Source: an uncultured Azospirillum sp.
Lineage (GTDB): Bacteria; Pseudomonadota; Alphaproteobacteria; RF32; CAG-239
Direction of reading: 5' to 3'
Length of the DNA stretch: 64,000 nucleotides
Assembly (NCBI GenBank): GCA_900542055.1
Contig: UQMA01000001.1
Location: 8,079 to 72,078 of the forward strand
The notes beneath the pieces were generated by a model, which worked only from the letters and a program-made list of their open reading frames with translations, did no database searches and was not told where the DNA came from. A program made the translations under genes and the position numbers. Of the stretch, positions 10,470-63,495 are shown piece after piece (position 1 is the stretch's first letter; each line of letters begins with the position of its first letter).

Positions 10470-10596
10470 TTAATAATAAAGCCCATAACTTTAATTTCAC
10501 ACGCAGGACGGCGGACACTCTAAGTTTTCGCTCCGGTGCTCTTAGCAAAGAGCCGAATGCCTGCGGAGGTTTAACCGGAAAACAAAGGATTATAAA
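10470..10596 (+). promoter_or_regulatory. Structured, GC-enriched 5' leader of rpsB (possible S2 autoregulatory element)
   Basis: Long-range complement cgcagg...cctgcg and a local hairpin gctctt-agcaa-agagc immediately upstream of the rpsB SD. Confidence 0.35.
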
Positions 10597-11442
10597 ATGA
10601 GTCTTCCAAAATTTACTATTCGCCAAATGATTGAAAACGGCGTACATTTCGGTCACCACGCTCGTCGTTGGAATCCGAAAATGGCCGAATATATCTATGG
10701 CAAAAAAGATAACATTCACATCATTGACTTGCAGCAGACTTACCCGATGCTCTACACTGCTTTGAATGCTGCCCGCGAAATTGCTGCCAACGGCGGTAAA
10801 GTTTTATTTGTCGGCACCAAAAGACAAGCTCAGGACATCATTAAAGAGAATGCTGAAAGATGTGGACAGTACTATGTAAACTATCGCTGGCTCGGCGGTA
10901 TGTTGACCAACTGGAAAACCGTTTATAAATCAATCTCTCGTTTAAACAAATTGAATGAGATGTTTGATAAAAACGAAACTGAAGGCTATACTAAAAAAGA
11001 ATTGCTCAATTTGAAAAAAGAACAAGACAAATTGGCAAAAGAATTGAATGGTGTTATGAATATGGGCGGACAGCCTGACTTGTTGTTCGTTGTTGATATG
11101 CCTAAAGAAGATTTGGCTATCAAAGAAGCTAAAAAACTCGGCATCCCGGTTATTGGTATTGCTGATACCAATGCGGATCCAAGCTTGGTTGACTTCCCAG
11201 TTCCAGGTAATGATGACGCTGTTCGTGCAATTCAATTTTATTGTGAATTGTTGTCTTCTGCCGTTTTGGACGGTATTCAAGCTGAAATCGCCGCACAAGG
11301 CGTTAAAGTTGACGAAATTGTAGCTGAAGCTAAACCTGCTCGCAAAAAAGCCGCAAAAGCTGATAGCGAAGCCGAAGGCACAGCTGAAGAAAAAGCTCCG
11401 GCTAAAAAAGCCGCCGCTAAGAAAAAAGCTGCTGCTGAATAA
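10597..11442 (+). CDS. rpsB: 30S ribosomal protein S2
   Basis: HFGHHARRWNPKM, and a Lys/Ala-rich C-terminal tail typical of alphaproteobacteria. Confidence 0.95.
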   Translation: MSLPKFTIRQMIENGVHFGHHARRWNPKMAEYIYGKKDNIHIIDLQQTYPMLYTALNAAREIAANGGKVLFVGTKRQAQDIIKENAERCGQYYVNYRWLGGMLTNWKTVYKSISRLNKLNEMFDKNETEGYTKKELLNLKKEQDKLAKELNGVMNMGGQPDLLFVVDMPKEDLAIKEAKKLGIPVIGIADTNADPSLVDFPVPGNDDAVRAIQFYCELLSSAVLDGIQAEIAAQGVKVDEIVAEAKPARKKAAKADSEAEGTAEEKAPAKKAAAKKKAAAE

Positions 11443-22659: not shown

Positions 22660-23395
22660 TAATCACATAAAAGTATTGTCGGCCTGCGTCACCGGACCTA
22701 TGCATAAAATCAGGCAAATGCCTTGTCAGGATTATTGCCGCCATTCAACTCGAGGCGATAATTTTGTCGCCGTGCTCTCCGACGGCGCCGGTTCCGCAAA
22801 ATATGGACGCATCGGTGCAAAAATACTTTGTGATACCTTAATAGACCTTTTGCCCAATGTTCCTTTCCGCGATATAAAAACCTCAATTATAAATTCCGTT
22901 GAAGTTGCCCGTGAAAAACTTTTATTTCATCGCCTGAATTCGCGCAACAATCATCGCGGACTGATGGCTTTTTCGGCAACTTTAGTCGGAGTTGTTTATC
23001 ATAAAAACCACGGTATATTTTTTCATATAGGGGACGGAGCCGCATTAGCTTTTACGGGCAGCAATTTTTCCGAATATGTAGCTTCCAAACCCGAAAATGG
23101 TATTTTTTCCTGCGAAACATATTTTTACACAATGGATGATTGGCGCGACTGCCTACGTTTTACAACTTTCGAAAAAGCTCACACCATAATGATGATGAGT
23201 GACGGAGTAACCGGATTTTCATTTTCCTCCGACTATAAAAACATAGAACCGCGTTTTTTGTTGCCGATAGACAGATTTTTAAGTAAAGAACCTATAAAAA
23301 GCCGCGCCCGCCGCGCATTATACAACACGCTCGGCACACCGCAGGCACAAAAAATAAATCCCGATGATAAAACATTTTTGTGGGCAAAACTATGA
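22643..23395 (+). CDS. PP2C-family Ser/Thr protein phosphatase (PP2C_2-like)
   Basis: The start MKNNTNNH overlaps the vWA stop by 17 nt. Motifs SDGAGSAKYG, FHIGDGAALAF, MMMSDGVT. Confidence 0.75.
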   Translation: MKNNTNNHIKVLSACVTGPMHKIRQMPCQDYCRHSTRGDNFVAVLSDGAGSAKYGRIGAKILCDTLIDLLPNVPFRDIKTSIINSVEVAREKLLFHRLNSRNNHRGLMAFSATLVGVVYHKNHGIFFHIGDGAALAFTGSNFSEYVASKPENGIFSCETYFYTMDDWRDCLRFTTFEKAHTIMMMSDGVTGFSFSSDYKNIEPRFLLPIDRFLSKEPIKSRARRALYNTLGTPQAQKINPDDKTFLWAKL

Positions 23396-24870
23396 ACGGA
23401 CAGGAAATAAAATATAATGCCGTTTACGGAGACGGTTCTTTTGAACAAATTACTCTGGGCGAGCTGATCAACAAAGGCGGCGCCGCCGGAAAAATTGTTG
23501 AAGTGAAAGAACACCCGCAACTGGTTGCAAAAATTTTTCACAGCTTAGCCAAAAGCAGCACCAACCGCGAAAAACTGCAAGCTATGCTGCTCAACCGTCC
23601 GGCTTTTTCGCCGGCTTTGAAAAACGGCAAAGAATTTTTGGCCGATGACGGAAAAAAATATATTCAAATTGCATGGCCGGAAGCTATTCTGGAAAATGAA
23701 GAAGGGTTTTGCGTCGGCTATTTAATGCCTCGCATTGAACTGAATCGTGCCGCCTCATTAGACCATTTTATGCAGCGCGCAACCAGACAAAAACTAAAAC
23801 TTCCGGAAAATTACGAATATCGGATTCGCATCGCCTGCAATCTAAGTTCCATGGTCGCTGCATTACATGAAAAAGGACATTATATTGTCGATTTAAAACC
23901 TTCAAACGTTTATGTTTATAAAGAAAGTATGCTTATTTCCATGCTCGATTGCGATGGTTTTTCGATTTTGGGCGACAAAGCACGTTATCCTGCCGAATTT
24001 GTAAGCGAAGAATATATCTGCCCCGAAGGCATGGAACAGGGATGTGACGAAATGGGAGAAGAGCAGGATAAATTTGCTCTGGCTGTAATTATCTTCAAAC
24101 TTCTGAATAATGGTATTCACCCTTTTTCGGGAACGCCGCGCAAAAACAATTCCGCCCCTCTGACCATACAGGAAAGAATAGCGCAAAATCATTATGCTTA
24201 TGGTTCATGGGCTGATTTATATCAGGCTCCGCATCCATATTCCATCCATGATTATTTTGCAAAAGACACCCTCGAACTTTTTGATCGCGCCTTTGTCCGC
24301 GGTCTCAAGCGTCCGAGCGCACAGGAATGGGAACAGCACCTGCGGAAACTGATAGCCAATCTGCGCCACTGTAAAAAGAACCGCAACCACGTTTATTTTA
24401 CTTCCAAAGGCTGCGGGTTGTGCATAATGGAAGAAAAAATAAAAGCCAATCTCAGCGATATAAAAAAACAATTTCAAAATCCCAAAACTGTACGCGGCAT
24501 GGCCGTTGACAATTTGACACCTGAAAAAATAGCACAAAACAAAAACTTACAGCTAAAAAAACTTAAAACAGTCAATCAAATAAGCGCTGTTGTCATCGTG
24601 CTTTATATGATATTTTGGACTATGCTTTATCCGATACTCAGTCCGATTGCCTCCCAAATAGTTCACTTGGGCTTCGGATTGCAAATGATTTGTTTTATTT
24701 TGCTCATGAGCTTTATATATCACGGATTAAAAAAATTTTCCACCAGAGTACCTTTGTTGAGCCATCCGGCCGTAACGGCAGCATTATTTGTTTATTCGCT
24801 GTTTTGCACAGTCATAACTTTATTGGCTATAAACGACCTTCCCGTTGAAATGTTGATGTTAACAAAATAA
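23392..24870 (+). CDS. Hanks-type Ser/Thr protein kinase with a C-terminal Cys cluster and three C-terminal TM helices
   Basis: ATGA overlap with the PP2C stop. Gly loop GGAAGKIVEV, Lys VAKIFH, catalytic loop HYIVDLKPSN, DCDGFS (DFG-like). Then CKKNRNHVYFTSKGCGLC and three hydrophobic helices. Confidence 0.8.
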   Translation: MNGQEIKYNAVYGDGSFEQITLGELINKGGAAGKIVEVKEHPQLVAKIFHSLAKSSTNREKLQAMLLNRPAFSPALKNGKEFLADDGKKYIQIAWPEAILENEEGFCVGYLMPRIELNRAASLDHFMQRATRQKLKLPENYEYRIRIACNLSSMVAALHEKGHYIVDLKPSNVYVYKESMLISMLDCDGFSILGDKARYPAEFVSEEYICPEGMEQGCDEMGEEQDKFALAVIIFKLLNNGIHPFSGTPRKNNSAPLTIQERIAQNHYAYGSWADLYQAPHPYSIHDYFAKDTLELFDRAFVRGLKRPSAQEWEQHLRKLIANLRHCKKNRNHVYFTSKGCGLCIMEEKIKANLSDIKKQFQNPKTVRGMAVDNLTPEKIAQNKNLQLKKLKTVNQISAVVIVLYMIFWTMLYPILSPIASQIVHLGFGLQMICFILLMSFIYHGLKKFSTRVPLLSHPAVTAALFVYSLFCTVITLLAINDLPVEMLMLTK

Positions 24871-33966: not shown

Positions 33967-33976
33967 AAGATTTGAT

Positions 33977-34016
33977 AAAAAAAACACCTTCCGCACAAAC
34001 GAAAGGTGTTTTTTTA
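33977..34016. terminator. Hairpin aacaccttc-cgcacaaac-gaaaggtgtt with flanking A-run and T-run
   Basis: Between the GT5 gene (+) and the 34018..34230 gene (-). Confidence 0.7.
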
Positions 34017-34017
34017 A

Positions 34018-34230
34018 TTATTTTTTCTTAACCGGCATTATCGCCATAACTTCATGAACTTCATCATCCACAGTCTGCTTTTTATAATCTTCCTGAGACA
34101 CAGAGTTTTTTTCTTCTTCTGTTACAGAAGTTTTAACATTTTGTTCCTGCTGTGAAACATTTTCTTCAGCCGCATTTGCCATTCCTAATGTTAAAACGCA
34201 TGCCAGCATCAAAGCCACAAAAAATTTCAT
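34018..34230 (-). CDS. Small secreted acidic protein (70 aa)
   Basis: Signal peptide MKFFVALMLACVLTLGMANA. Confidence 0.45.
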   Translation of the reverse strand: MKFFVALMLACVLTLGMANAAEENVSQQEQNVKTSVTEEEKNSVSQEDYKKQTVDDEVHEVMAIMPVKKK

Positions 34231-34242
34231 TTCTTATCTCCT

Positions 34243-34280
34243 TATTTTATTTTGAAAAACAGAAAGACCCGCTAAACGGA
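34243..34280 (-). terminator. Hairpin cagaaagaccc...gggtctttctg with T-run on the minus strand
   Basis: Downstream of the lipoprotein gene. Confidence 0.6.
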
Positions 34281-34309
34281 TCTTTCTGTTTTATAAACAC
34301 TAAAAGTAA

Positions 34310-35614
34310 TCACTTCTTGCCATAGTAAAGAACATAGCCAATTGCAGAATAGACGTAAGAAATCTTTCCGAAGCCGATTGTCGAAACAAATTGCAAGTCC
34401 ATTTGCTCATGATTTTCCTGCGAATACCAATCTTTTTTCAAAGAAACTGCTATATCTGCTCCAGAATATTGCAATGCCGGCATTTCGTATTCAAAACCAT
34501 TTTTTGCATAAACAGCTTTTTCATACATAACACCAAACACGTAGTTTACGCCCTCATTGGCAGTGCTTTTAACATTCAGGCGGTATATTCGCTCATACGT
34601 ATTTATGGTCATGTCCCCCTCAGTTCTACTCTTGTCCAGAGCATCGCTGTATTCAGGACTGCCGATAACAAGATCCGCAAAGGCAATTTTGCTTTTAGCC
34701 CCAAGTGAAAAATTTACGTAAGAATATTCTGAAGGCATATTCTTAAGCAACACTTCCTTAGTTACGGTTTTAGTTCCGCTTTCCGACCAAGTTTCTTCAA
34801 TCTTTATCCAAGATTTTGAAACACCGGTCTTCTTTTCAAGATCATACGAAACAAGCTCAACACCTGAATCAACAACCTTTTGCGAAACCAAATAATCATC
34901 CTTAAGTTCTTTCTTAAGAACGACTTCGGCATTAACAGCATATTCTTTGCCGTTAAACACAACTGTAAGCGAATGTTTATACAGCTTTTGCAAGTAGTTT
35001 TTACCATTTTCTTTACTATTGTCCAAATCAGATAAACTGCCGCCGTTATCCCTTATTTCAGAATATTTATGATAAGGCATAACAACTTTGGTAACACCAT
35101 CGTTATAGACAGCCACCTGATAAGGCAACACAAATTCAATGGCAAACGCACCACGGTTAACCGTGTACACCAACGCGGAATCAATAACCGACACAAATTT
35201 TTGAACGGCGTGTTTGTTTACAGCCAATTCTCGATAGTCCGTAGCGGACACACCATCCGACAACTCAAAGCTTTTCACCTCGAAAATCGACGAATAGTTT
35301 TCAATGTTGTTAGTCAGCTGAACTGAAATTTTATTTCCTTCAGCAGAGCTGCTCGCTCTGGTTTTTGGCTGAGCTTTAGAAGTGCTGCCGTCGGCAAAAA
35401 GCTGCGACACAACAATCCAAGACTCATAACTCAAGGAAGTTCCTTCAGTTCCGTTACTTACTGCAGTTACCTCTTCAGCGGTACCTGGGTCAACCACTTC
35501 GCTTTTGATCACCCGGTCAGGATCTGCGAAAAACTCACTTTCTTTGCTGCAAGCAACAAAGAGCGTCATCACTGTGCTGAGCACTAATGCTGACAAGATA
35601 CTTTTTGTCTTCAT
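34310..35614 (-). CDS. Lipoprotein, hypothetical (434 aa)
   Basis: Lipobox LFVAC|SK. No family recognised. Confidence 0.55.
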   Translation of the reverse strand: MKTKSILSALVLSTVMTLFVACSKESEFFADPDRVIKSEVVDPGTAEEVTAVSNGTEGTSLSYESWIVVSQLFADGSTSKAQPKTRASSSAEGNKISVQLTNNIENYSSIFEVKSFELSDGVSATDYRELAVNKHAVQKFVSVIDSALVYTVNRGAFAIEFVLPYQVAVYNDGVTKVVMPYHKYSEIRDNGGSLSDLDNSKENGKNYLQKLYKHSLTVVFNGKEYAVNAEVVLKKELKDDYLVSQKVVDSGVELVSYDLEKKTGVSKSWIKIEETWSESGTKTVTKEVLLKNMPSEYSYVNFSLGAKSKIAFADLVIGSPEYSDALDKSRTEGDMTINTYERIYRLNVKSTANEGVNYVFGVMYEKAVYAKNGFEYEMPALQYSGADIAVSLKKDWYSQENHEQMDLQFVSTIGFGKISYVYSAIGYVLYYGKK

Positions 35615-35760
35615 AATTTTTTTAATTAAAAGGATTAATATATGTTAACTGTTTTAACTCAAACAAATCTTCAACAAAAAATCATCCGAATTTTCAGGGC
35701 AAAACCTGACATCAATAATAGTGTTTATATTAATAATTCTAAATAATAATTTGTTGAATT

Positions 35761-38357
35761 TTAGTAAGCTAATCCCATCAAATTGGCATTATAGCAGCCG
35801 GTGCACAGCGTTGAGCCATTCCAGTTAGGATCAAAATCACTATTGCAATCTCCTTTGCATTTTCCTCCCGTGCTGCATGGATTATAAGTATAATTATACT
35901 TATCGAATTTATAATACCAAATTCCGTTAATAGCCCAATCATCCTCCATTTTATGATAATTGGAACCAAGCCTCAGCAGTCCACCGTTATCACGGTGTCT
36001 AATAGCGCCTCTTCCGCTATCAAAAGAAAAGCTTTTTCCTCCAATTTCTGCTTTACCGCCCCACATGCAAATAAGAGTTTTTGTACTGTTTTCCATTTTA
36101 ATAGGAGCCGCAATAACATTGCTGTTTTCTATATACATTTTCACACCTTCATTAAGCCAACTTGGTTCGTTTATGGTCAAAGTAGACGAATTTCTTACAT
36201 GCACTCCGCGAGCTCTCCATAATACTTCTCCTGAATGTTCAACTGTAGACGCATCACTCAATCCGCCAAACCTGAAATAACTAGCATCTCTTGCCCCGGA
36301 ACCATGTGTTCTTATTGTTGTCGCCGTAATTTCAGAACCAGACAAACCAACATTTATAGAACTCCAAAAATCTCCTACCGATGAATTCGTATTAGCCATT
36401 TTGGAATCAATAAACAATACCGTGCCATCGTCACCATCCCAATTAACATTCTGCCCCCAGTATATGTTACCATTGTACTCGCCATTCGTGTTAATTGTTG
36501 CATTTTTGAATATAACAGTACCGCCAATTCTGAAATTAAAAGGTGCTGAATATGCCTTTTTACCTGTTATCGGATCATTATAACCCTCACCAAAAAGGCT
36601 ATTAGTTAAAAATCCTATTCTTCCTGATAAGGTCAGAATTTTTCTCGCATTTACGATAATTTCATTCACCCAATCGCCATGAAGAAACTTATGATAGCCT
36701 TCATCTCCAACTTTCACCTTTTCAGGATATAGAACTGAAATAATACCAACATTGTGCCATTCATGGTCGGCGTCTATAATAAAGTTTTCGGCAAAACCGC
36801 CTTGTTTGTCCTTTGTATTAGTTGCATAAAACTCTATCGATATATCAGAAAGATCACGATTCAAAAACGTATTATCTTTATTGATGTTATTGCCGTTAAA
36901 TTTCATTACCGGACGGTCCCAAATATAACCTTTATCGCTGGAGTCCCTGCATCCTGCAAACATCAAGCTACCATCGGAATATTTCATATTTGTATTGCCC
37001 AACGCCCACATGCCATTGATCGAAGAATAAGAAACTTTATTGCCGATATGTTCCCAAGAACCCCTGTTGGTATTCATAGAAGATTTAGGCAATGTTATAT
37101 TTTCCGTAATATACAAATGTTTGTTGCCGCTGCTGTCTGTTCTCACAAAACCGACCACGCCGCCTTTATCACCAACCATTGATGTGTCTTGCGTTAAATA
37201 TCCTTTTGAAAAAGCTCTGCGCACTTCCTGTTCGCATGGAAGCTTACAGGTGTAATAATACAATGCGTTATCATCATTCCCCGGACATACCTCATAGGTT
37301 CCGACGAAACCATCCACTGTACTGCAGCTTGCGCCTTCTCTCGGCTTTGTAGACATTGTGCTGGTATAACCATGGCCTACACACCAACTAGCCTTATCAA
37401 ACACGCATTTATACAATGCCGGATTTGTCGGATAAGGACACTGTTCACCCAAAATACAATTATAAGAAGTTAAATATTCATATTTCTTCGTATCAGGATT
37501 ATACACTTGATTTTTTGTTCTGCAATTATGCTGCATTGAGCAATCGGTATGCTGAAAACCTGTGTGCTTTTTGTTGGCTACAGTGGTTCCCAAGCTATCT
37601 CCGTCTTCTTCTTCATCATAGGTTCGGCAGGCTTCTTCAGCTGTTTTGCATCTGGAATAATATTCGCGCTGCGAATTACTGTCTATACAAGTCGACGCGC
37701 CGATAGCCGGACCATATTCACAGCTGGCATGCTCATAAACCGCTCTGTCGCAATAACATTTGCTATAAGTCTCCCCAGCATCATCTGTGCATGACGCCGA
37801 CAGTGTTTGATTATTTTTACACTTGTTGCCTTTATCAGTATAAATAGCTCTGTCGCATGTACAGGTTTTATACTTAATGGTATCTGTAGTTCCATCATTC
37901 AACATACAATAACCGCCGCCCGGCTGGCAATTGTTTTGCTTGGCATAATCCGAAGTTACTCCGTACTCATCAGGACATTTGCAAGCATAACGGGTGCCGC
38001 ATTTGCCAAATATTGTTTGTCCCTTAATTACTCCGCCGACAGCAGTTGTATCTACTTCCAAAGGATAGATGCAGCCTTCATAGCGAAATTTCGGAGCGCA
38101 GCATTTTATATAAGAGCTCTTGTAAGGACAGTTATATTTGAAATAACCGTCTAAGCAGGATGTTGTTTTGCTGTCAGCATAGCCCTCGTTTTCACAAGCG
38201 GTATCATTCGGATCAACGAGGGGATTTGCAGGAAAATTGCCGCCGCTGCCGCAATTTTCATCGGTAGCGAAGCAAACTCTAGCCTGCGAATCGGTACAAA
38301 AAAGCGCACCGCATAGCACAGCAGTGAGCATAAATATAGCAAAATTACGTGTTTTCA
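35761..38357 (-). CDS. Large secreted Cys-rich protein (about 865 aa). N-terminal ~400 aa is dense in Cys; C-terminal half is Gly/Asn/Ser-rich and beta-rich
   Basis: Signal peptide MKTRNFAIFMLTAVLCGALFC. Recurring CxC and CxxC pairs. No recognisable catalytic motif. The ORF-track start at 38415 is an extension. Confidence 0.6.
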
Positions 38358-38545
38358 TTGCTCTTCCCCTTAAAAAGCTTCTTACACTTATGTAAATGTA
38401 AAATAATAAAAACAAAGCGCACTGCGGCTTTGCGGCACTAATCGACAGATAACCCCCTATCGATTGTTTAAAAGTTTAACATACAAAAAAATAAAACACA
38501 ACAATTTTTGCGCGTTTTTTATAAATCATCAGTAAACTGACAGCT

Positions 38546-39247
38546 CTAACCCAATTTTTTGAAAAAGTCTTTTCTTTCCCGCCGCTGCATAGACCACAAA
38601 TTACCCCAGCCGTTGACCGGCTGAAATTCATTTTTGCACTTAAAATCAAAATTTCTGCTCAAAAACAAAGAAGTCGTTTTAGTGTAACAGTTCATCGGGC
38701 AAAAGCCGAAAAAGTCGACTTGCAGCAAATTTGCCGATTTTAGCGCCGCCGCTGCACGGCGATATTCCTCGCTTGTATTTATTCTGTCGCTGTCGTCCAA
38801 AATAATCATCCCGCCTTCAGCCAGAGCTTTAACCGCGGCTTCAGCGCACCACGCGCGGCGTTTGCCGTCAACAACAATCACATCATATGCCTGATTGTCC
38901 TCAAAAATGGCGTTTTCATATTCTTCGCCTTCATCGCGCAGCCTAATTTCAAAGTTGTCATACTTAAACAGCTCTGACCACTTTTTAAACCAATCTTCCT
39001 TATCTTCTATACTAGTCACGCTCAAAGCACGCTGCGCCCAAAAAGCCGATGAATAACCGCAGCCGTATTCAAAAATTTTTTTATCGGTATAATCAAACTG
39101 CGACAAATATTCTATTGCCGGATAAGTGTACCACGGTATCGGATTTCCATCACGGTCAAGACAAAGCTTTTCATCAATGCTTTTTTCCATGGCAAAATCT
39201 TTTTGCCACATTTCGATAAACTTTTGAAACTTTTCGCTATACATCAC
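38546..39247 (-). CDS. Class I SAM-dependent methyltransferase
   Basis: Motif I EYGCGYSSAFWA, acidic motif II region VIVVDG. 4-nt overlap with holA. Confidence 0.6.
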   Translation of the reverse strand: MMYSEKFQKFIEMWQKDFAMEKSIDEKLCLDRDGNPIPWYTYPAIEYLSQFDYTDKKIFEYGCGYSSAFWAQRALSVTSIEDKEDWFKKWSELFKYDNFEIRLRDEGEEYENAIFEDNQAYDVIVVDGKRRAWCAEAAVKALAEGGMIILDDSDRINTSEEYRRAAAALKSANLLQVDFFGFCPMNCYTKTTSLFLSRNFDFKCKNEFQPVNGWGNLWSMQRRERKDFFKKLG

Positions 39248-48136: not shown

Positions 48137-48155
48137 ATTTTTTGATTTATAAAAA

Positions 48156-48246
48156 TGGCGGATGAGGAGGGATTTGAACCCCCGTTACGGGATTACCGTA
48201 AACACGATTTCGAGTCGCGCGCATTCAGCCTCTCTGCCACTCATCC
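48156..48246 (-). tRNA. tRNA-Ser (long variable arm; anticodon read as CGA)
   Basis: Reverse complement: GGATGAG acceptor pairs with CTCATCC. Extra arm present. T-arm GGTTCAAATCC. CCA encoded. Length 91 nt. Confidence 0.75.
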
Positions 48247-48371
48247 ATCCAAGCTGCGAAATACTGCAAGCAAAATCAATATACATTTATTAAAAGCAAA
48301 CATAAAATTTTGCAAGTTTTTTTTAGCCTGAATACATCAATTTTTAATATTAAGATATTTTTGCCAAATTC

Positions 48372-48400
48372 TTGACAAAAATATCTTTTTTATATATATT
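48372..48400 (+). promoter_or_regulatory. Near-consensus sigma70 promoter (ttgaca, 17 nt spacer, tatatt) upstream of the second GH24 gene
   Basis: Hexamers read directly from the sequence. Confidence 0.4.
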
Positions 48401-48437
48401 TAATCCGTTTTTAAATTATGTTATAAAATTATTTTAT

Positions 48438-49238
48438 ATGAAAAAATTTTATGTTATCGCATTAATTATCAGTATAATTTATGCGTACAATAATTTGTCC
48501 GAAGATTCCAGACATCCGCCGCGAGACATTGAAATTTCTAGCAATGAACTCTGTATGGCCGATGAAGATACAGTCAGTATAGAAACTTCTCCCAACAAAG
48601 AAACTTATCTGAGTGTTGAAGACGAAGTTCTTATCTGCCTTGCGTATGTTGAAAACTATAGCGAACGTTCTTATTTCTGCGGAAAAAGATGGACAATAGG
48701 CTACGGTTCCACATATTACGCCGATGGAACAAGGGTGCAAAGCAATGAGCAAATAACCATGTTACAAGCTCAAAAATGTGTCAGACAGCATCTGCGCAGA
48801 TATGTTTTTCCATATATTGATAAATATGTAAAACGCAGGCTCTCCAGACAAGAAATTATCGGAACAAGTATGTTTATTTACAATATCGGTTCCGAAAATT
48901 TTAAACAGAGCGCCTTTTTGCAAGCCGTCAATAATGGAAAATCGCCTAAAGAATGCGCAAGACGTATGACAGAGTTTAGTAAATCAGGCGGAAAAACAGC
49001 TTTAGGATTGCTGAAAAGAGAATGGGTGCAAGGAGCAATATACTGTGGCCACATTTCTCCGCATGAACTTTTGAATTTAAAACCGGCAGGATTTTATAAC
49101 TTTGGGTTAAGTGAGTTTTACAACAACCAATACCGTTTATGGGATGGTTTTTATGATTATAACTTCTCTCAACAAAAAATAAAATCTTTCCTGCACAAAA
49201 ACAAAAGCAATGATTTACGCGTTATCGACATCATCTGA
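48438..49238 (+). CDS. Second secreted GH24 lysozyme-like protein (paralog of 17507..18517)
   Basis: Signal anchor MKKFYVIALIISIIYA. YVENYSE...CGKRWTIGYGST. The conserved Asp is replaced. Confidence 0.65.
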   Translation: MKKFYVIALIISIIYAYNNLSEDSRHPPRDIEISSNELCMADEDTVSIETSPNKETYLSVEDEVLICLAYVENYSERSYFCGKRWTIGYGSTYYADGTRVQSNEQITMLQAQKCVRQHLRRYVFPYIDKYVKRRLSRQEIIGTSMFIYNIGSENFKQSAFLQAVNNGKSPKECARRMTEFSKSGGKTALGLLKREWVQGAIYCGHISPHELLNLKPAGFYNFGLSEFYNNQYRLWDGFYDYNFSQQKIKSFLHKNKSNDLRVIDII

Positions 49239-49277
49239 AAAAAGCCTTTACTTTATCAAAAGTAAAGGCTTTTTTGT
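49239..49277 (+). terminator. Hairpin aaagcctttac-tttatcaaaa-gtaaaggcttt with T-run
   Basis: After the GH24 paralog. Confidence 0.8.
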
Positions 49278-49360
49278 TCAACATTTTTATAAAAAAATCA
49301 AAAGCCACATTATCCAGCAGCATTTGATTTTTAAATATTTAGTTTTATATAAGCAAACAA

Positions 49361-49397
49361 CAAAAAAGTATCACTCTTTGCAGAGTGATACTTTTTC
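49361..49397 (-). terminator. Hairpin agtatcactct-ttgc-agagtgatact
   Basis: Downstream of the minus-strand gene 49415..49798. Confidence 0.7.
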
Positions 49398-49414
49398 ATT
49401 ATAGCAAGCCCTGA

Positions 49415-49798
49415 TTACGCTGTAGCACCATACTTACGTAAGAGTGCACATTTTTTCTCATCATCCTTACATAACTCCAAAAGCGAGCCATAGAAATAAT
49501 CTTCGTGCTCAAATGGAGAATATTCATTACAATAAGAAAAATCATTAGTATACCTTTCTTTTGTAACAACTATTGTGTTAGGGTTTAAACCTTTTTTAAG
49601 CAAGGCTTCAAGCTGGTTAATATCGCCATATTTGCAGAGATATTTAAGTTCTTCATTAAACTTCAATTTTCTCTCATTATACTTAGCAATACACCTATCA
49701 ATGCCCTTAGCTGCAATATTAACAAGATGCGATATTACAACACACAAACCAAGCATCACAATTAGAAAAACTACTGATAAAATTACGTATACAATCAT
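49415..49798 (-). CDS. Hypothetical N-terminally membrane-anchored protein (127 aa)
   Basis: ORF with a hydrophobic N-terminus. Confidence 0.4.
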   Translation of the reverse strand: MIVYVILSVVFLIVMLGLCVVISHLVNIAAKGIDRCIAKYNERKLKFNEELKYLCKYGDINQLEALLKKGLNPNTIVVTKERYTNDFSYCNEYSPFEHEDYFYGSLLELCKDDEKKCALLRKYGATA

Positions 49799-50084
49799 AA
49801 TTACTTAATTTAAGTTTAACATTCAAAAATAAAAAAGTATTATAAAGCAAGCTACAAACAAATTATAACAAATTATAGCAAATTAATGACAAATATAATA
49901 ATACTTTAAGAAATACTATTATACCACATTTACTTGTTTTAGCAAGTTTTTTTATATTTGTGCTGAGATAAAATCTCAAAAGCAAACGATAACTGTTTTT
50001 GTCAGGAAAATGGCTAAAATGCCGCAAATAAAAAATATTAAACTTTGTTCGGATTTCAAACATTGTTTAACATTTTAGTGAAAA

Positions 50085-50839
50085 TTACTTCTTTTGCCAT
50101 TGCATTAAAAATTCTTTTTCATTGGTAACATCATCTAATTGCTCACGGATGAAATCAAACTCATTTTGCTTATAAAATTTGTAGGCAAGTTCATTTTTTT
50201 GATAAACCGATAATCTCAAACTATGATTCAATGATTTTGCATAATTCAGTAATTGCTTTCCAATTCCTTGCGCTCTGGCATCTCTTTGCACAAAGACGCC
50301 TGCGATAAATTCATCTTGCAAGCCTATAAAGCCCTTTATTTGGTTGGATTTTTCATCTTCATAAACATAAACCTTGCTTTGTGGCAGCATTTGCTTAACA
50401 AAATCATAGTTTTGTTGCCAATATTCCGATGCAATAAAATGATGTGCTTGCAAATTACCATCAAGCCATATCTGCATCACCATGTCTAAATCTGTTATTT
50501 TCAGCGGTCGTATCATTTCCTTTGCGCCATCATACGGAAGTTCCATACTTGCGTTTGGCATCATAGTCTTTGCTGCTTTCACAGGTTTTACCAGAAATCT
50601 GTCGTCATAAATTCCGCCAATTACTTTGTCACGATAATAAATGATATATTCCCCCATCATGCCCGATAGGAAACTTCATTCAATTCTGACAGTTGGTCAA
50701 CTATAAAATCCAAGAATTCTTTGCTTGATGCCATTATTTTCCTCATTTTGAGAGTAATATTAAGGCAATTTTGGTTAAAAAAGACATAAATTGGCTGTAA
50801 AAAATCATAGTTTTGATTTTTGTAATTTACGAAAATCAA
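50085..50839 (-). pseudogene. TfoX_N-domain / GNAT acetyltransferase fusion gene split by a 1-nt frameshift
   Basis: The upstream frame ends ...SELNEVSYRA*. The next frame continues MMGEYIIYYRDKVIGGIYDDRFLVK, matching the TfoX_N consensus S.LGEVS.RRMFGGYGLY.DG.MFAL..DD.LYLK across the break. GNAT motif A is QGIGKQLL. Confidence 0.5.
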
Positions 50840-51180
50840 TTTTATTTTTTCCGTTGGAACATGTTTTTTTCATCATTGTATAAAAATCGGTGGTAGAAGA
50901 TTTTTCCACGATAAATGTAAGCGATGCGGGTGGACGTATCGCCGTGCGAAATTCGGTAGTGGATTAGCAGAAAGCCCTTATAAATAAAGCCTTTCTCCCA
51001 TAAAGTTATTAAATCACCAAGGGGTATTTTATCAATTTTGTAACTGAAATACGGGCAAGCAAATAAATTTATTACAAATCCCGTAACTATGAAATTTGTG
51101 CATGTTTTGCGCCGAAAATGCTCCCAAAATGATGTTACGAAAAAGCATATTTCAAATATTAAAGAGATGTTAGAAAAAGA

Positions 51181-51370
51181 TAGAGTCTTTAAGTAGTATA
51201 TTGTTTGTCTTCGCAATGGGATTGGCTTTGCCGCTACGTCCTCGCTCGGCGTTGCCTCACCGGCGTACTACCGTTCTCCTCTCGCCCCTTGTCGACCCCA
51301 CTTTTTCGTGGCTCCTTATCCCGCCACTCCTAATAACAAAAAAGGCTACCTTTCGGTAACCTTCTTTTAT
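51181..51370. ncRNA. Candidate structured non-coding element, about 67% GC and C/T-rich on the plus strand, ending in hairpin ggctacc-tttc-ggtaacc
   Basis: Strong compositional contrast with the surrounding AT-rich DNA. No convincing protein-coding frame: only a 50-codon Pro/Leu/Arg-rich ORF, whose composition follows from the C/T bias. Strand and identity unknown. Confidence 0.3.
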
Positions 51371-51373
51371 TAT

Positions 51374-51448
51374 TGGAGCGGGTGAAGGGATTCGAACCCT
51401 CGACATCAACCTTGGCAAGGTTGCGCTCTACCCCTGAGCTACGCCCGC
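51374..51448 (-). tRNA. tRNA-Gly (anticodon GCC)
   Basis: Reverse complement: GCGGGCG acceptor, anticodon loop TTGCCAA, GGTTCGAATCC, CCA encoded. Confidence 0.9.
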
Positions 51449-51555
51449 ATCGTTAGAACGAGTTATTTAATAGCATATACAAAAAATTTTGCAAGTATTT
51501 TTTTCATATTTTTTATATTTTTTTGCTCTTTTAAAATAATGCCATTTTCATTTAT

Positions 51556-54405: not shown

Positions 54406-55074
54406 TTAAAAAATAAAAAACAAGACCATACCAGCGGCAACAGCCAAAGCCGGTCCGAAAGCTCCGGCTTTTTGGCGTTTGACAATAGAATATACGCCGA
54501 ATAGCAAGCATGAAAGCAAAATCGTGTAAAGAAGTCCTTCAACACCGAGCCAAGCTCCTATTGCTGACAAAAGTTTTATATCTCCGCCGCCAAAAGCTTC
54601 TGTACTGCGCCACAGCATCAATAAAGTTGCTATAACCGGAATAACATAACCGGCCAAAGCCGCTACTGAGCTTTCAAACGGACTCAAAAAAGGATGAAAT
54701 GAAGCCGCAAAAACAAAACCGCAAATCAACAGCGGCACCGTTAATATATCCGGCAGCAACAAAATTTTACAATCGATTTCAGTAAGCAATATCAGTGTCC
54801 AAATAAAACCGAGCCACCACCAGACATTTTCGTTTTCTAAACGATACAAAAACAACGCCGTCGTCAATGCCGTAACTAAAGCATACAAAAAACTGCGCAT
54901 TTGGTATGCTTTTAATAGTTTTCTATATTTATCGTTTCGCCGATTTGATGTTTTGTTTTTTTTCACCAAGCGATAAAGAGCATAAGCCGGAGTTGCTGGC
55001 ATAAATTTTGCAAACCGCCGCGCCATATACGGCACCAAAGCCCCGAATAAAAATCCTGTAAAAATATAAATCAT
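54406..55074 (-). CDS. A24-family prepilin peptidase
   Basis: Two conserved Asp regions (EIDCKILLLPD, GGGDIKLL). Polytopic membrane protein. Confidence 0.7.
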   Translation of the reverse strand: MIYIFTGFLFGALVPYMARRFAKFMPATPAYALYRLVKKNKTSNRRNDKYRKLLKAYQMRSFLYALVTALTTALFLYRLENENVWWWLGFIWTLILLTEIDCKILLLPDILTVPLLICGFVFAASFHPFLSPFESSVAALAGYVIPVIATLLMLWRSTEAFGGGDIKLLSAIGAWLGVEGLLYTILLSCLLFGVYSIVKRQKAGAFGPALAVAAGMVLFFIF

Positions 55075-60801: not shown

Positions 60802-63495
60802 CTATTTTCTGTTTTTAGCAGGCATAGCCTCTGGAGTTTTGGCAACCGGATTATCAATATATGATGATACAGGTTTACGCCATACTTTTTGTTCCGGTTT
60901 TGGTGCTGCTTTCGGGAAAGCTTTTCCGCAAATTTCTACACCCAAACTACGCATAGCTGTTTCCATCGGCAGGAACAGATCTGTTTCCGGATCTTGTGCA
61001 CGATGCGATAAACCGGCAACGCGTCCTTTTTCATCAATCAGAGAGGTGCCAATTGTTGCCTTTGGATTAAAAGTTTCAACCACAATTTCGGCAATTCCAT
61101 CTGGAGTATAGCGATAGCTTGAAACTTTTGCAGTATTATTTAGATAAGCTTTATCATTGTCTGTTACCGGAGTCGGAGCAACATAGCTGCCTTTTGCAAC
61201 CGGAGGCAATTCAAGCGTTAACGCCAAAGGAGCATATTCAGCATGTTCGCTCAACACCAACAATGCAGTATTACGATGCGGATTCAAGCGGAAAGCTTTA
61301 GCCTTAATAGTTTTTCCTCCTGAAGTTTCAACCGTATAGCTATTATCTTCACGATTTAGCAAATCAGCTGAAGTCATAACAAATTGTTCTGAAATCAACA
61401 ATCCTGCGCCTTTTTTACCTTTAGAATTTGTAATAGAGACAATAGATTTTCTTGTTTCTTCAATTGTATCAGAACTCAAATTTGCATAGTCGGCGCGTTC
61501 TACAATACACAATTTATCTGCTTCATAGATAGCGCCCGTGGCAACAGGCTCAACAGCTGCAACACCGTTTTCAACAACACCTGAATTTTCAGTTACCGGC
61601 GGATTTTTAAAATCAACAGCTACCACACCTGCTTCTTTAACACCAGAATCTTCGGTTACAGGAGGATTTTGATATTCAATTGCTACAACCCCCGACTCTT
61701 TAACGCCAGAATCTTCAGTTACAGGAGGATTTTGATATTCAATTGCTACAACACCCGACTCTTTAACACCAGAATCTTCAGTTACAGGAGGATTCTTCAT
61801 TTCGACAACCGGCTCTATAGAAACAATTGCCGATTCGTTAATACCTGAATCTTCAACAACCGGAGGATTCTTCATTTCAATTACAGGGGTTGCTTTAATA
61901 ACTTTAACCTCAGTTTCAACAACAGGTTTAACAACCGGAACTTCTCTTATTTCAATCCAGCCTTCTTTTGAAACATAACCACCGGAAACAGCGCCGAAAT
62001 CTTCAACGACTTTGAATTGGCAAATGCCGCTGGCGCGCTGAATTTCCATAAGAGTCTGTTTTTGTCTTTGCATTTCTTCCGGACTGACTCGAACAGCCAA
62101 TTGATCTTCAAACCCCGGCAAATAGCGAAGATTATCGGCAGCATCGGCAAACGCACGTTGGATTAACAACATTTCGCCGTTATACTCACCTTCTTCTACT
62201 TCACCATACCCCGTTGATTCACCTTTCCAAAGAACATTGGTTTTGCTTGCATCCATCAAACGCCATGTTACCTTCATTTCAGATGAACCGTTACGGCTGT
62301 TTTCCATTTTGGCTTCATCCCAGTTATACTCATCACATACATTCATAAAATAATCTGTGATTTCAGCTGTCAAAACATATTCCGGCAAAACACTGTTTTC
62401 ATCAATACACTGTTGCGGATTTACAATCGTGTAGCAATCAGAGACCATATCTTTGAAAATTTCACCGAAGTTCATATCTTTTTCAACAATGCGGCCTTCA
62501 TTCAAAATTGCATTTTTGGTATTCCGACGGCAGCCGAAAATTCTAAAACGATAATTTCCGAGTTTGCGGGAATAAGTTTTTACATCGCCGCGGACAATTC
62601 TGAAATCGACCCACTCCATACTTAACGGAGCAAAATCTTTGCAGCTGCGAACGACTTCCTGCATTTCATATTTTTTAACACATGCCGGTTTCGGAGCAGG
62701 AACGGGTTGTACGCATGTCTGACAAGGTTTCGGAGCTACACATGTACGACAAGGAGCTTTTTGGCAAGGAGCAACTTGACGGCATGGCCGTTTGCAACTT
62801 TGGCAAGGAGTTTTTGTTTGTTGAGCGCAGTTTTTGCACGGACCGCCGCCGAAAATACTGCCGTTTTTGGTGCAGTTTTTGCACGGACCACCGCCAAAAA
62901 TACTGCCGTTTTTGGTGCAGTTCTTGCATGGACCGCCGCCGAAAATACTGCCGTTTTTATCTTTTCTTTTGCACGGACCGCCGCCAAAAATACTGCCGTC
63001 GCGGCAAGTTTCTTCTTCACCTTCAAAAACTTTCTGTCTTTCCGAACGAGATGACATAACAAATTCGGTTTCGGCTTTAGGAGTTTCATTTTGTGAAAAT
63101 TTATATTCATAAGTTTTTTCGGTTCTGCCGCGGCGTTCTACTTCCTGTTGGCTTACAGGCACCAAACGATGTTCTTTGGGCTCATCAACACTTGTCATGT
63201 GATAAACTTTTTCAGGAGCGCGACGGGTTCTTACAGCTTGCGGAGCCGGTTGCGGCTGAGCAGTAACAGGAACTTCCTGATAAACAGGTTCCGCAAAACG
63301 GGTATAAACCTGTGTCTGTGAAGAACAGTCATAATTTTTAACGGACGGATAGATAACATCCGATTGATAATTTTGGACAGGAACATATCTTGCAGAAGTT
63401 GCCTCTGGGCAGCCGCAATCTGATGCATTTGCCGCAGATATGCTCAAGACGGCTGTAACCGTCCAAGTAAACACCCTTGATATTTTATTCAACAT
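60802..63495 (-). CDS. Large secreted repeat protein (897 aa): N-terminal Cys/Pro-rich region, 4x GSIFGGGPCKNCTKN, 4x about 21-aa NPPVTEDSGVKESGVVAIEYQ, C-terminal trypsin-like (possibly inactive) domain
   Basis: Signal peptide MLNKISRVFTWTVTAVLSISAANA. The C-terminus GTSLIDEKGRVAGL sits where a GDSGGP-type motif would be. Confidence 0.65.
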   Translation of the reverse strand: MLNKISRVFTWTVTAVLSISAANASDCGCPEATSARYVPVQNYQSDVIYPSVKNYDCSSQTQVYTRFAEPVYQEVPVTAQPQPAPQAVRTRRAPEKVYHMTSVDEPKEHRLVPVSQQEVERRGRTEKTYEYKFSQNETPKAETEFVMSSRSERQKVFEGEEETCRDGSIFGGGPCKRKDKNGSIFGGGPCKNCTKNGSIFGGGPCKNCTKNGSIFGGGPCKNCAQQTKTPCQSCKRPCRQVAPCQKAPCRTCVAPKPCQTCVQPVPAPKPACVKKYEMQEVVRSCKDFAPLSMEWVDFRIVRGDVKTYSRKLGNYRFRIFGCRRNTKNAILNEGRIVEKDMNFGEIFKDMVSDCYTIVNPQQCIDENSVLPEYVLTAEITDYFMNVCDEYNWDEAKMENSRNGSSEMKVTWRLMDASKTNVLWKGESTGYGEVEEGEYNGEMLLIQRAFADAADNLRYLPGFEDQLAVRVSPEEMQRQKQTLMEIQRASGICQFKVVEDFGAVSGGYVSKEGWIEIREVPVVKPVVETEVKVIKATPVIEMKNPPVVEDSGINESAIVSIEPVVEMKNPPVTEDSGVKESGVVAIEYQNPPVTEDSGVKESGVVAIEYQNPPVTEDSGVKEAGVVAVDFKNPPVTENSGVVENGVAAVEPVATGAIYEADKLCIVERADYANLSSDTIEETRKSIVSITNSKGKKGAGLLISEQFVMTSADLLNREDNSYTVETSGGKTIKAKAFRLNPHRNTALLVLSEHAEYAPLALTLELPPVAKGSYVAPTPVTDNDKAYLNNTAKVSSYRYTPDGIAEIVVETFNPKATIGTSLIDEKGRVAGLSHRAQDPETDLFLPMETAMRSLGVEICGKAFPKAAPKPEQKVWRKPVSSYIDNPVAKTPEAMPAKNRK
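61575..61890. repeat. In-frame tandem repeat array, about 63-nt unit x about 5 (units 4-5 degenerate)
   Basis: Unit ...acccgactctttaacaccagaatcttcagttacaggaggattttgatattcaattgctaca... Confidence 0.8.
62836..63005. repeat. In-frame tandem repeat array, 45-nt unit x about 4
   Basis: Unit gcacggaccgccgccgaaaatactgccgtttttggtgcagttttt. Confidence 0.85.

Follow-up and report, generated by a model that had tools for sequence, protein, structure and literature searches.

The window of DNA analysed here, a stretch of 64,000 nt from contig UQMA01000001.1 of the assembly GCA_900542055.1 (uncultured Azospirillum sp.; Alphaproteobacteria; RF32; CAG-239), contains within positions 34018–38415 three consecutive open reading frames (ORFs) on the minus strand. 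We will refer to them, in the order in which they occur, as BIG (a secreted protein of 865 aa), LIPO (a lipoprotein of 434 aa) and SMALL (an acidic product of 70 aa). Comparisons of this locus with related loci, all of which are derived from metagenome assemblies, indicate that it is a hypervariable allelic cassette which is restricted to one clade and occupies a fixed position. A preliminary description of this DNA had presented the three genes as an island encoding an acidic secreted peptide, a lipoprotein and a large protein with a signal peptide; the genes are present at the reported coordinates and export signals are found in all three of their products. In this work, L-numbers (L001 and so on) denote related loci or contigs and P-numbers (P0004 and so on) denote individual proteins of the family. 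BIG is divided into a conserved Cys-rich N-module, a C-half and a short C-terminal tail, and LIPO consists of a conserved N-part and a variable C-domain (Table 1).

Replacement of alleles at a fixed locus

The sequence of the window was compared with that of L018, which is from the same species. The two are 95.8% identical at the DNA level over 9.5 kb upstream, as far as position 37831 (about residue 176 of BIG), and 95.6% identical over 6.9 kb downstream from position 34051, which lies in the last codons of SMALL. Between these two positions nothing alignable was detected by blastn. At the protein level, the leuS product is 99% identical and the flanking proteins are 98–99% identical, as compared with 65% for the N-module of BIG, 34% for its C-half, 37% for the N-part of LIPO and 19% for the C-domain of LIPO. 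The SMALL gene is within the segment that is replaced between the alleles, and the third gene of L018 encodes an acidic secreted protein of 198 aa which is unrelated to it.

Replacements of this kind were also observed in a second species and in a third lineage. The loci L001 and L003 have flanks that are 98% identical, and the part that is replaced begins at nucleotide 89 of BIG and extends to where the small ORF ends. The loci L029 and L030 are 93% identical up to about residue 485 of BIG, with nothing alignable for residues 486–817; residues 1–290 of LIPO are then 81% identical and the C-terminus of LIPO is again unalignable. The pattern seen in this last pair therefore points to two hypervariable modules with a conserved stretch between them. 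Across the three lineages the flanks of the swapped alleles are 93–98% identical, and the same-species alleles show only 20–34% identity in the C-half of BIG and 12–20% in the C-domain of LIPO. The left breakpoint is inside BIG in every case, in the N-module for L018 and L001/L003 and near residue 485 for L029/L030, and the right breakpoint, for those contigs that extend far enough (L018 and L001/L003), coincides with the end of the cassette.

The alleles are also trans-specific, i.e. common to several species. The allele of the window is shared by L019 and L020 (96 and 88% identity for BIG, respectively, with flanks that are 99–100% identical), and it is nearer to the alleles of L001, L006 and L008 than to that of L018 from its own species. 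For 22 full-length BIG proteins, the mean pairwise identity is 57% in the N-module and 39% in the C-half, and mosaic proteins are observed among them: P0004 and P0011 are 90% identical in the N-module and 36% in the C-half, and for P0016 and P0020 the corresponding values are 97 and 45%. The column entropy rises along BIG, reaching peaks at positions 526–625 and 676–825, between which there is a conserved island at positions 626–675.

Selection and co-variation of BIG and LIPO

The differences between the window and the near-identical allele of L019 were classified as nonsynonymous or synonymous; the counts are small. Codons 101–400 of BIG contain 1 nonsynonymous and 8 synonymous differences, as against 30 and 5, respectively, for codons 401–865 (Fisher p=6e-5), and in the pooled flanking genes there are 10 nonsynonymous and 38 synonymous differences (p=3e-9 vs. 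the C-half of BIG). The ratio of nonsynonymous to synonymous change (dN/dS) is estimated from these counts to be roughly 1–2 in the C-half of BIG vs. 0–0.2 in the flanks. The N-module is by this measure under purifying selection, and the C-half of BIG and the C-domain of LIPO are likely under diversifying or balancing selection.

Mantel tests on 10 loci show that the C-half of BIG and the C-domain of LIPO change together (rho 0.90, p=0.0002). The correlation of the BIG C-half with the N-part of LIPO is lower (rho 0.57, p=0.012), and for the N-module of BIG the values are −0.02 and 0.09 with the two parts of LIPO and 0.21, which is not significant, with the C-half of the same protein.

Distribution of the BIG and LIPO families

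No match to BIG or LIPO was found in Pfam, NCBIfam, PADLOC or PHROGs (for BIG, none in Pfam at E<=0.1), and searches of the two families against PDB sequence profiles gave 0 matches at E<=10. Together with the absence of a convincing Foldseek match (see below), these results agree with the earlier statement that the proteins belong to no recognisable family, and clear homology to a conserved housekeeping family was likewise not found with Pfam, NCBIfam or the PDB profiles. For SMALL, the family searches yielded only sub-threshold noise. In a collection of 5.8 billion proteins BIG has 51 relatives, all of which lack a Pfam domain, are unnamed or annotated as “hypothetical protein” and come from metagenome-assembled genomes (MAGs) of Alphaproteobacteria. 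An exhaustive search of 1.84 billion representative proteins with a hidden Markov model recovered only 97 proteins of the BIG family. About 20 of these 97 are full-length, and about 50 share only the first 230–300 positions, i.e. the Cys-rich module, and have other C-termini. When 53 BIG paralogues were searched against Pfam, nothing but one Lcl_C adhesin domain was found, and no toxin, pre-toxin or immunity domain was detected in BIG, LIPO or these paralogues. LIPO has about 50 relatives (49 were found), again without Pfam domains, and a profile search revealed no distant ones. Viral contigs contained no relatives of BIG or LIPO, and the possibility of a prophage or tail-fibre origin was rejected on this basis.

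The named sources of the relatives are MAGs from human, mouse, chicken, roe-deer and other gut or rumen samples, and their labels include Alphaproteobacteria bacterium, “Azospirillum sp.” and Candidatus Scatocola. BIG and LIPO thus constitute orphan families that are restricted to one clade, and a literature search on this clade retrieved nothing on these genes. The contigs end directly after three different paralogues that possess only the N-module, and most of the contigs with LIPO are short. Such truncation is typical of strain-variable loci, because strain variation breaks assemblies.

Genes, products and predicted structures

The features of the cassette are summarized in Table 1. The ORF of BIG as listed extends from 35761 to 38415 and is lengthened by a TTG start to 884 aa. 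However, the ATG at 38358 is the true start, because it is preceded by the ribosome-binding site AAGGGGAAG and because the residues M1-K2-T3 which follow from it align with all homologues.

Table 1. Positions in the window of the cassette genes, their parts and the associated terminators.
Feature	Position	Strand	Basis
BIG, secreted modular protein, 865 aa	35761..38358	-	ORF call; start from alignment and ribosome-binding site
BIG signal peptide, aa 1–25, likely signal peptidase I site SQA/RVCF (predicted)	38284..38358	-	Read from sequence
BIG N-module, aa 26–375, conserved Cys-rich domain, 33 Cys	37234..38283	-	Alignment of 22 homologues
BIG C-half, aa 376–800, hypervariable, predicted beta-rich and beta-solenoid-like	35959..37233	-	AlphaFold2, DSSP, allele comparison
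BIG C-terminal tail, aa 801–865 and stop, 5 Cys, ends LC[TS]GCxxCxxxG[ML][GA][YF]	35761..35958	-	
LIPO, predicted all-beta lipoprotein, 434 aa	34310..35614	-	ORF call; 49 homologues without Pfam domains
LIPO variable C-terminal domain, aa ~296–434	34313..34729	-	Alignment; co-varies with BIG C-half
SMALL, signal peptide and acidic low-complexity mature part, third and facultative gene, 70 aa	34018..34230	-	
Intrinsic terminator 3' of LIPO	34251..34297	-	Inverted repeat I4; −23.6 kcal/mol, then T-run
Bidirectional terminator between SMALL and convergent GT5 gene	33975..34018	.	Inverted repeat I5; −21.2 kcal/mol, A/T runs on both sides
Segment swapped for an unalignable allele in L018	34051..37831	.	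blastn; ends = recombination breakpoints

Beyond SMALL the cassette is followed by genes for a GT5/GlgA-like synthase and by grpE, and upstream of BIG there are a class-I methyltransferase (MTase) gene, holA, lptE and leuS. The housekeeping flanks and the terminators that had been described earlier are therefore both present, with strong terminators after LIPO and SMALL and only weak hairpins 3' and 5' of BIG. The MTase gene (38546–39247, minus strand) encodes a protein of 233 aa, and its start overlaps the stop codon of holA (39244–39247). Its product shows weak matches to Methyltransf_24 and to the PADLOC model mad2 (E=4e-5), and it is 62–99% conserved in all relatives, including those which lack the cassette, with no apparent tie to the latter. 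A functional tie between the cassette and this gene was rejected, as the gene is kept and conserved in the cassette-less L021 and L022.

The mature N-terminus of BIG, [RK]VCF, is invariant across the family. In many BIG paralogues (e.g. P0039, P0125, P0155 and P0160), the sequence L-[VIL]-A-C-G-C is present inside the signal peptide, before A-[RK]-VCF; given this plausible lipobox, some members of the family may themselves be lipoproteins. The BIG protein of the window is atypical in having A-V-L-C-G at that spot.

BIG contains 42 Cys residues (4.9%, vs. a median of 1.6% for window ORFs of at least 200 aa), 40 of which are in the mature protein. The first 400 residues account for 35 of them, 33 past the signal peptide. 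Among 22 homologues that share 37–96% identity, 31 of the 33 Cys in the N-module are invariant and the other two are at least 90% conserved, which is far above chance, and the Cys-rich domain noted earlier is thus real and conserved. The patterns that had been ascribed to this region are borne out in part. The first 400 residues contain three CxC motifs (126/128, 166/168 and 201/203), one CC pair (86/87) and several C-x4-7-C spacings, but no CxxC, the sole example of the latter in BIG being at 852/855 in the C-terminal tail. Two adjacent units of about 37 aa with the motif Y-x-x-C-x-C-D-R-x-x-Y were recognized in the N-module (hhalign probability 88%; DNA repeat D4 with 105-nt spacing); the internal-repeat analysis supports this one pair of units only. 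The N-module is presumed to be disulfide-bonded, in which case its 33 Cys together with C470 could form about 16–17 disulfides. At the other end of the protein, the last 15 or so residues of the tail of about 65 aa are conserved and terminate in GMGY or GLAY, the final residue being aromatic.

An AlphaFold2 model of BIG based upon 22 sequences has a mean pLDDT of 72.7. Residues ~376–800 have block pLDDT values that are mostly 75–95, and they were assigned by DSSP nearly entirely to short beta-strands; the N-module was modelled with moderate confidence as beta-hairpins and the tail with low confidence. The earlier characterization of the C-half as beta-rich is consistent with this all-beta model, and its characterization as rich in Gly, Asn and Ser is consistent with the composition measured over the whole of BIG (Gly 10.3, Asn 8.1, Thr 8.0 and Ser 7.7%). 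When the full model was compared by Foldseek with PDB and BFVD, no match reached E<=0.001. The top matches, all non-significant (E>=0.01), are right-handed beta-helix proteins, viz. Hbp, UpaB, Hap, Ag43, HpmA, tailspikes (CBA120/AS12) and pectate lyases. As proteins with beta-helices are at the top of both Foldseek lists, the C-half is tentatively described here as beta-solenoid-like, an impression gained from these lists. Invariant Gly, aromatic and hydrophobic positions are scattered throughout the C-half in the alignment of 22 sequences, and the alleles are therefore variants of one fold rather than unrelated domains.

LIPO has the lipobox TLFVA-C22. Its Cys22, which is the sole Cys of the protein, is invariant in 32 homologues, and MKTKSILSALVLSTVMTLFVA-C22 agrees with the PROSITE pattern PS51257; the lipobox of bacterial lipoproteins has the general form [LVI][ASTVI][GAS]-C. 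The AlphaFold2 model of LIPO (pLDDT 85.4, pTM 0.51) consists of 24 long antiparallel strands. A Foldseek search of this model against PDB produced no convincing match; the one nominal match, to 6x5w (E=3.8e-4), was treated as uninformative because its TM-score is 0.11. The top matches, mostly non-significant, are to elongated multi-beta-sandwich adhesion proteins mixed with barrels. The N-terminus of SMALL (MKFFVALMLACVLTLGMANA) resembles a signal peptide, and 12 acidic as against 7 basic residues are found in the mature part of the product. Counterparts of the same character, ranging from 56 to 198 aa, are present in L001, L006, L008 and L018, and none was seen in L003, L009, L010 or L015.

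Genomic position and composition of the cassette

The gene order leuS-lptE-holA-MTase-BIG-LIPO is conserved in at least nine related genomes or contigs of gut and rumen Alphaproteobacteria (L001/L002/L007, L003, L009, L010, L015, L018, L019, L020, L029 and L030). The GC content of the cassette is 0.393, as compared with 0.390 for the whole window, within which 4.4-kb segments span 0.335–0.422; the GC content at third codon positions (GC3) lies inside the range of the neighbouring genes, and the skew is like that of the flanks. The preliminary description had considered the cassette to be an island set apart from its flanks, and it had named a shared composition and a shared gene order across relatives as results that would speak against this. 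Both were observed, in GC content as well as in GC3 and in the occupation of the same site in at least nine relatives, and that view was abandoned. In view of the conserved synteny and the ordinary composition, the cassette is not a recent foreign insertion.

No integrase, tRNA, direct repeats or mobile-element signatures were found at 31–41 kb. In the same region there are no repeats longer than 34 nt, and the inverted repeats consist of terminator hairpins and of chance-level ones only. The neighbouring genes include no reverse transcriptase or recombinase. Two mechanisms for generating diversity were rejected on these grounds: a diversity-generating retroelement, for which both the long repeats and a neighbouring reverse transcriptase are wanting and the divergence, moreover, extends over >3.7 kb, and an inverton or shufflon, for which there are only terminator hairpins and chance inverted repeats and no recombinase gene nearby.

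Interpretation of the cassette and alternative explanations

The reading that we favour, with a probability of roughly one half, is that the cassette specifies a strain-specific envelope or surface complex (antigen, adhesin or receptor-like) which would be under diversifying or balancing selection. BIG and LIPO would cross the inner membrane by the Sec pathway, and their variable parts would bind each other to form a complex in the envelope or at the surface. The conserved N-module, which is common to about 50 clusters of paralogues with other C-termini, would have the same role throughout, for instance as an anchor, as a stalk or in export, and the variable parts would face an agent that acts in a frequency-dependent manner, such as phage, host immunoglobulin A (IgA) or neighbouring cells. 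New types would spread by homologous recombination, with crossovers in the conserved N-module and in the downstream flank. This evolutionary behaviour agrees with the preliminary description in so far as an adhesin, a toxin or a locus for surface interaction was suspected there, whereas the framing as an island, in the sense of composition and synteny, is not borne out.

Several observations weigh against the surface-complex reading. Surface exposure and the interaction of BIG with LIPO are inferences only, no outer-membrane translocator for BIG was identified, and a disulfide-rich domain is awkward for export of a type V-like kind. Many LIPO relatives have an Asp at position +2 of the lipobox, a residue that in Escherichia coli leads to retention in the inner membrane. 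The structural support is weak, as seen from the mean pLDDT for BIG, the lack of significant Foldseek matches for it and the TM-score of the LIPO match to 6x5w (all given above). The co-variation may in part reflect physical linkage, because the C-half of BIG adjoins LIPO on the DNA. Additionally, the cassette is missing at the MTase site in L021 and L022, where a tRNA-Gly and an [FeFe]-hydrogenase operon follow the MTase instead, and in L014 LIPO does not adjoin a BIG homologue; hence, the BIG–LIPO pair is not obligatory. Lastly, the data are from metagenome assemblies throughout, the counts behind dN/dS are small and the Mantel tests involve 10 loci.

In connection with export, the window contains a gene for a prepilin (type IV leader) peptidase (54406–55074, minus strand). 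It indicates that a type IV pilus, a Tad apparatus or one like the type II secretion system is encoded somewhere in the genome, and such an apparatus is relevant to the possible export of folded proteins that are rich in disulfides.

The main rival to a surface complex, which we consider unlikely on the whole, is a polymorphic toxin or bacteriocin, in which BIG would be the exported toxin with its N-module used for export or receptor binding and its C-half as the active part, LIPO would be a periplasmic immunity lipoprotein or a Maf-like secretion partner, and SMALL would act in immunity or in an accessory role. The architecture of the locus, with a conserved N-terminus, a C-part that varies and a downstream gene that varies along with it, suits such a system, as do the trans-specific alleles that are swapped as cassettes within species; SMALL is acidic, like many immunity proteins, and there is precedent in MafA/MafB for a Sec-dependent polymorphic protein that needs an adjacent cognate outer-membrane lipoprotein (PMC7738311). 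However, BIG, LIPO and the 53 paralogues lack toxin, pre-toxin and immunity domains, the extreme C-terminus of BIG is conserved rather than variable, and its variable part, of 425–490 aa, retains one beta-rich fold in place of unrelated small toxin domains. No orphan C-terminal or immunity cassettes were found downstream, 434 aa is unusually large for an immunity protein, SMALL is missing from several alleles, and by Pfam and NCBIfam LIPO is not a homologue of MafA nor BIG of MafB (DUF1020). Somewhat more doubtful still is the proposal that BIG and LIPO form a heterotypic lock-and-key pair for self-recognition, built from two orphan folds. The variable beta-solenoid of BIG, either on one cell or released from it, would then bind only the matching variable domain of LIPO, and the outcome would be recognition between cells in a strain-specific manner, or else a dedicated and hitherto unknown export route by which a disulfide-rich protein depends on a lipoprotein. 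The features that fit such a proposal are those of S-locus-like systems, viz. two modules that co-vary across a conserved segment, trans-specific alleles and behaviour resembling balancing selection.

The remaining alternatives are less probable. That BIG is a glycan-active enzyme, i.e. a lyase or hydrolase with a beta-helix, aided by LIPO as a glycan-binding surface lipoprotein, and that the alleles represent substrate specificities which partition niches, would suit organisms that live in the gut or rumen; a GT5 glucan synthase adjoins the locus, and pectate lyase, polygalacturonase, alginate lyase, capsule depolymerase tailspikes and GH110 are also in the Foldseek list. We consider this improbable, as no Pfam Beta_helix, Pectate_lyase_3, Glyco_hydro_28 or similar domain is found in BIG or its relatives, no conserved cluster of acidic catalytic residues is evident, most invariant positions of the C-half being Gly, aromatic or hydrophobic, and a within-species identity of 20–34% exceeds the divergence that is usual for enzyme specificity. 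The adjacency to GT5 is also not conserved, a hydrogenase operon being interposed in L001 and L003. A horizontally acquired genomic island carrying host-interaction effectors of a symbiont is very improbable: although orphan exported genes do lie here between terminators and housekeeping genes, and alleles that are common to several species imply lateral exchange of the cassette, its GC and GC3 are indistinguishable from those of the flanks, the signatures of mobile elements are lacking, its position is conserved in relatives with absence from the site only in L021/L022, and no viral relatives were found. What takes place is the homologous replacement of a locus that is already resident, not an insertion, and the organisms are MAGs of free-living gut or rumen commensals rather than known intracellular symbionts. 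Scarcely to be entertained is a conserved factor for envelope biogenesis or housekeeping that is tied to the lptE-holA operon and plays no role in strain specificity. The constant place directly downstream of leuS-lptE-holA-MTase in many genomes and the strong purifying selection on the N-module might suggest it, but the allelic divergence is extreme with an excess of nonsynonymous change, the cassette is missing in L021/L022 though the MTase and flanks are kept, a hairpin resembling a terminator lies between it and the MTase operon, and the family is confined to one clade.

Related sites and other features of the window

In L021 a tRNA-Gly region is found directly after the MTase and before the [FeFe]-hydrogenase operon, i.e. 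in the place that BIG and LIPO have in the window. The corresponding region of the window (51365–51521) is 89–90% identical to positions 7729–7884 of L021 and 9316–9473 of L022, where it adjoins the MTase; the region downstream of the MTase is therefore a hot spot of rearrangement. In L001 and L003 (12578–16529), but not in the window, a three-gene operon of the [FeFe]-hydrogenase/NADH-dehydrogenase type, encoding HydA-like (589 aa), 51K-like (559 aa) and 2Fe-2S thioredoxin-like (160 aa) proteins, separates the cassette from GT5. Members of the clade are probably anaerobes with a fermentative metabolism.

A second conserved site for the family follows fliG-fliH-fliN and genes for an SRP54-type GTPase, a ParA/MinD-type ATPase and a J-domain protein (L017, 9001–13593; L027, 6001–8130). 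It is occupied in L017 by a BIG-like protein of 1063 aa together with a LIPO-like protein of 425 aa, and in L027 by a paralogue of 709 aa that has only the N-module. The N-module of L017 is 83% identical at the DNA level to that of the window over 900 nt and the rest of L017 is unalignable to the window, a possible trace of gene conversion or of transfer from one locus or species to another.

Elsewhere in the window, a stretch of low GC (~48150–51450; 0.29–0.34 vs. 0.39) lies between tRNA-Ser(CGA) (48156–48246) and tRNA-Gly(GCC) (51374–51448) and includes an ORF with a phage-lysozyme domain (48372–49238) and a GNAT acetyltransferase (50085–50660). It is a better candidate for an acquired islet than the cassette. 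A protein of 897 aa with a signal peptide (60802–63495, minus strand; 3.1% Cys, no Pfam match at E<=1e-5) consists of tandem NGSIFGGGPCKNCTK repeats, a Pro/Cys-rich stretch with CxxC and tandem NPPVTEDSGVKESGVVAIEYQ repeats. It was rejected as a BIG paralogue, as its sequence is unrelated, and it represents another orphan exported repeat protein. The window also encodes a protein of 496 aa with a eukaryotic-type protein kinase domain (23380–24870, plus strand), and an rpsB leader (Rfam RF01815, 48.8 bits) is located at 10498–10592 on the plus strand, upstream of the ORF 10597–11442.

Significance of the locus

Members of this clade of gut Alphaproteobacteria occur widely in humans, mice, chickens and ruminants, and they are uncultured and functionally uncharacterised. 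The locus described here is probably their main determinant of strain type and strain individuality. It offers a marker for the tracking of strains, and it is a likely target of phage, IgA or interbacterial recognition. A strain-variable cassette of exported proteins is of a known kind, and what is unusual in the present case is the coupled variation of two orphan proteins. New here are an undescribed Cys-rich domain, found in about 50 clusters of paralogues, and an undescribed lipoprotein of predicted all-beta structure. If BIG and LIPO are indeed a cognate pair, they would constitute a new module for recognition or secretion.

Comparison with known systems

In its working, the locus would appear to resemble the Maf and TraA systems and the beta-helical surface proteins and tailspikes, but it belongs to none of these. 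With autotransporter passengers, chlamydial Pmp proteins and tailspikes it shares a variable module that is beta-rich and solenoid-like, and the combination of a conserved N-terminal module with exchangeable C-terminal ones is as in tailspikes, with their anchor and receptor-binding domains. It differs from them in that the structural matches of BIG are non-significant (E>=0.01) and that a C-terminal barrel, Chlam_PMP repeats and a phage context are all lacking. BIG does not qualify as a type Va autotransporter, as it contains no Autotransporter (PF03797) domain and has a Cys-containing tail of about 65 residues after the beta-rich region. Two-partner secretion is similarly not indicated, since no Haemagg_act domain was found by Pfam or NCBIfam, the neighbours are the MTase and LIPO with no TpsB, and the N-terminus is Cys-rich, unlike that of the proteins secreted in this manner. 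No Pfam match to Chlam_OMP6 or Chlam_PMP was obtained that would relate BIG to the chlamydial OmcB, OmcA or Pmp proteins.

Strain-variable surface-layer cassettes are known in the slpA locus of Clostridioides difficile, and RsaA of Caulobacter has an N-terminal anchor to lipopolysaccharide. The likeness here is in divergent cassettes that are exchanged at a fixed site by homologous recombination, and in a conserved anchor with a variable exposed part. Surface-layer proteins are normally Cys-free, unlike BIG, and those mentioned show no homology to BIG or LIPO.

In polymorphic toxin systems, hypervariable toxin domains of unrelated folds at the extreme C-terminus are followed by immunity genes and often by orphan cassettes (PMC3482391). 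A variable C-part with a co-varying downstream gene is also a feature of the present locus, but the C-terminus of BIG is conserved, one fold is kept, and no known toxin domain or orphan cassette is present. The Maf system of Neisseria combines MafA, an outer-membrane lipoprotein, with MafB, a polymorphic secreted protein (PMC7738311; PMC4287609). As in that system, the N-terminal domain of a protein with a Sec signal is conserved and its C-terminal part varies, the neighbouring gene is for a lipoprotein with cognate specificity (suggested here by co-variation), several members occur per genome, and the variation is driven by recombination. However, BIG and LIPO do not match the DUF1020/MafB or MafA models, the gene order is reversed, with BIG before LIPO, the N-module is Cys-rich, the extreme C-terminus of BIG is conserved, and toxin or immunity domains and orphan cassettes are lacking.

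Lastly, TraA, which acts with TraB, is a polymorphic receptor for kin recognition in Myxococcus (PMC3820747; PMC6372800). Like the present locus, it involves a surface-type protein with a hypervariable recognition domain and Cys-rich repeats, a partner gene and many types within and across species. The order of the domains is the opposite, as in TraA a variable PA14-like domain is followed by Cys-rich repeats and MYXO-CTERM. BIG, which ends in GLAY or GMGY, has no PA14, MYXO-CTERM or hydrophobic anchor, and LIPO, unlike TraB, has no OmpA domain. Additionally, as LIPO co-varies with BIG, the specificity of this pair would be heterotypic rather than homotypic.

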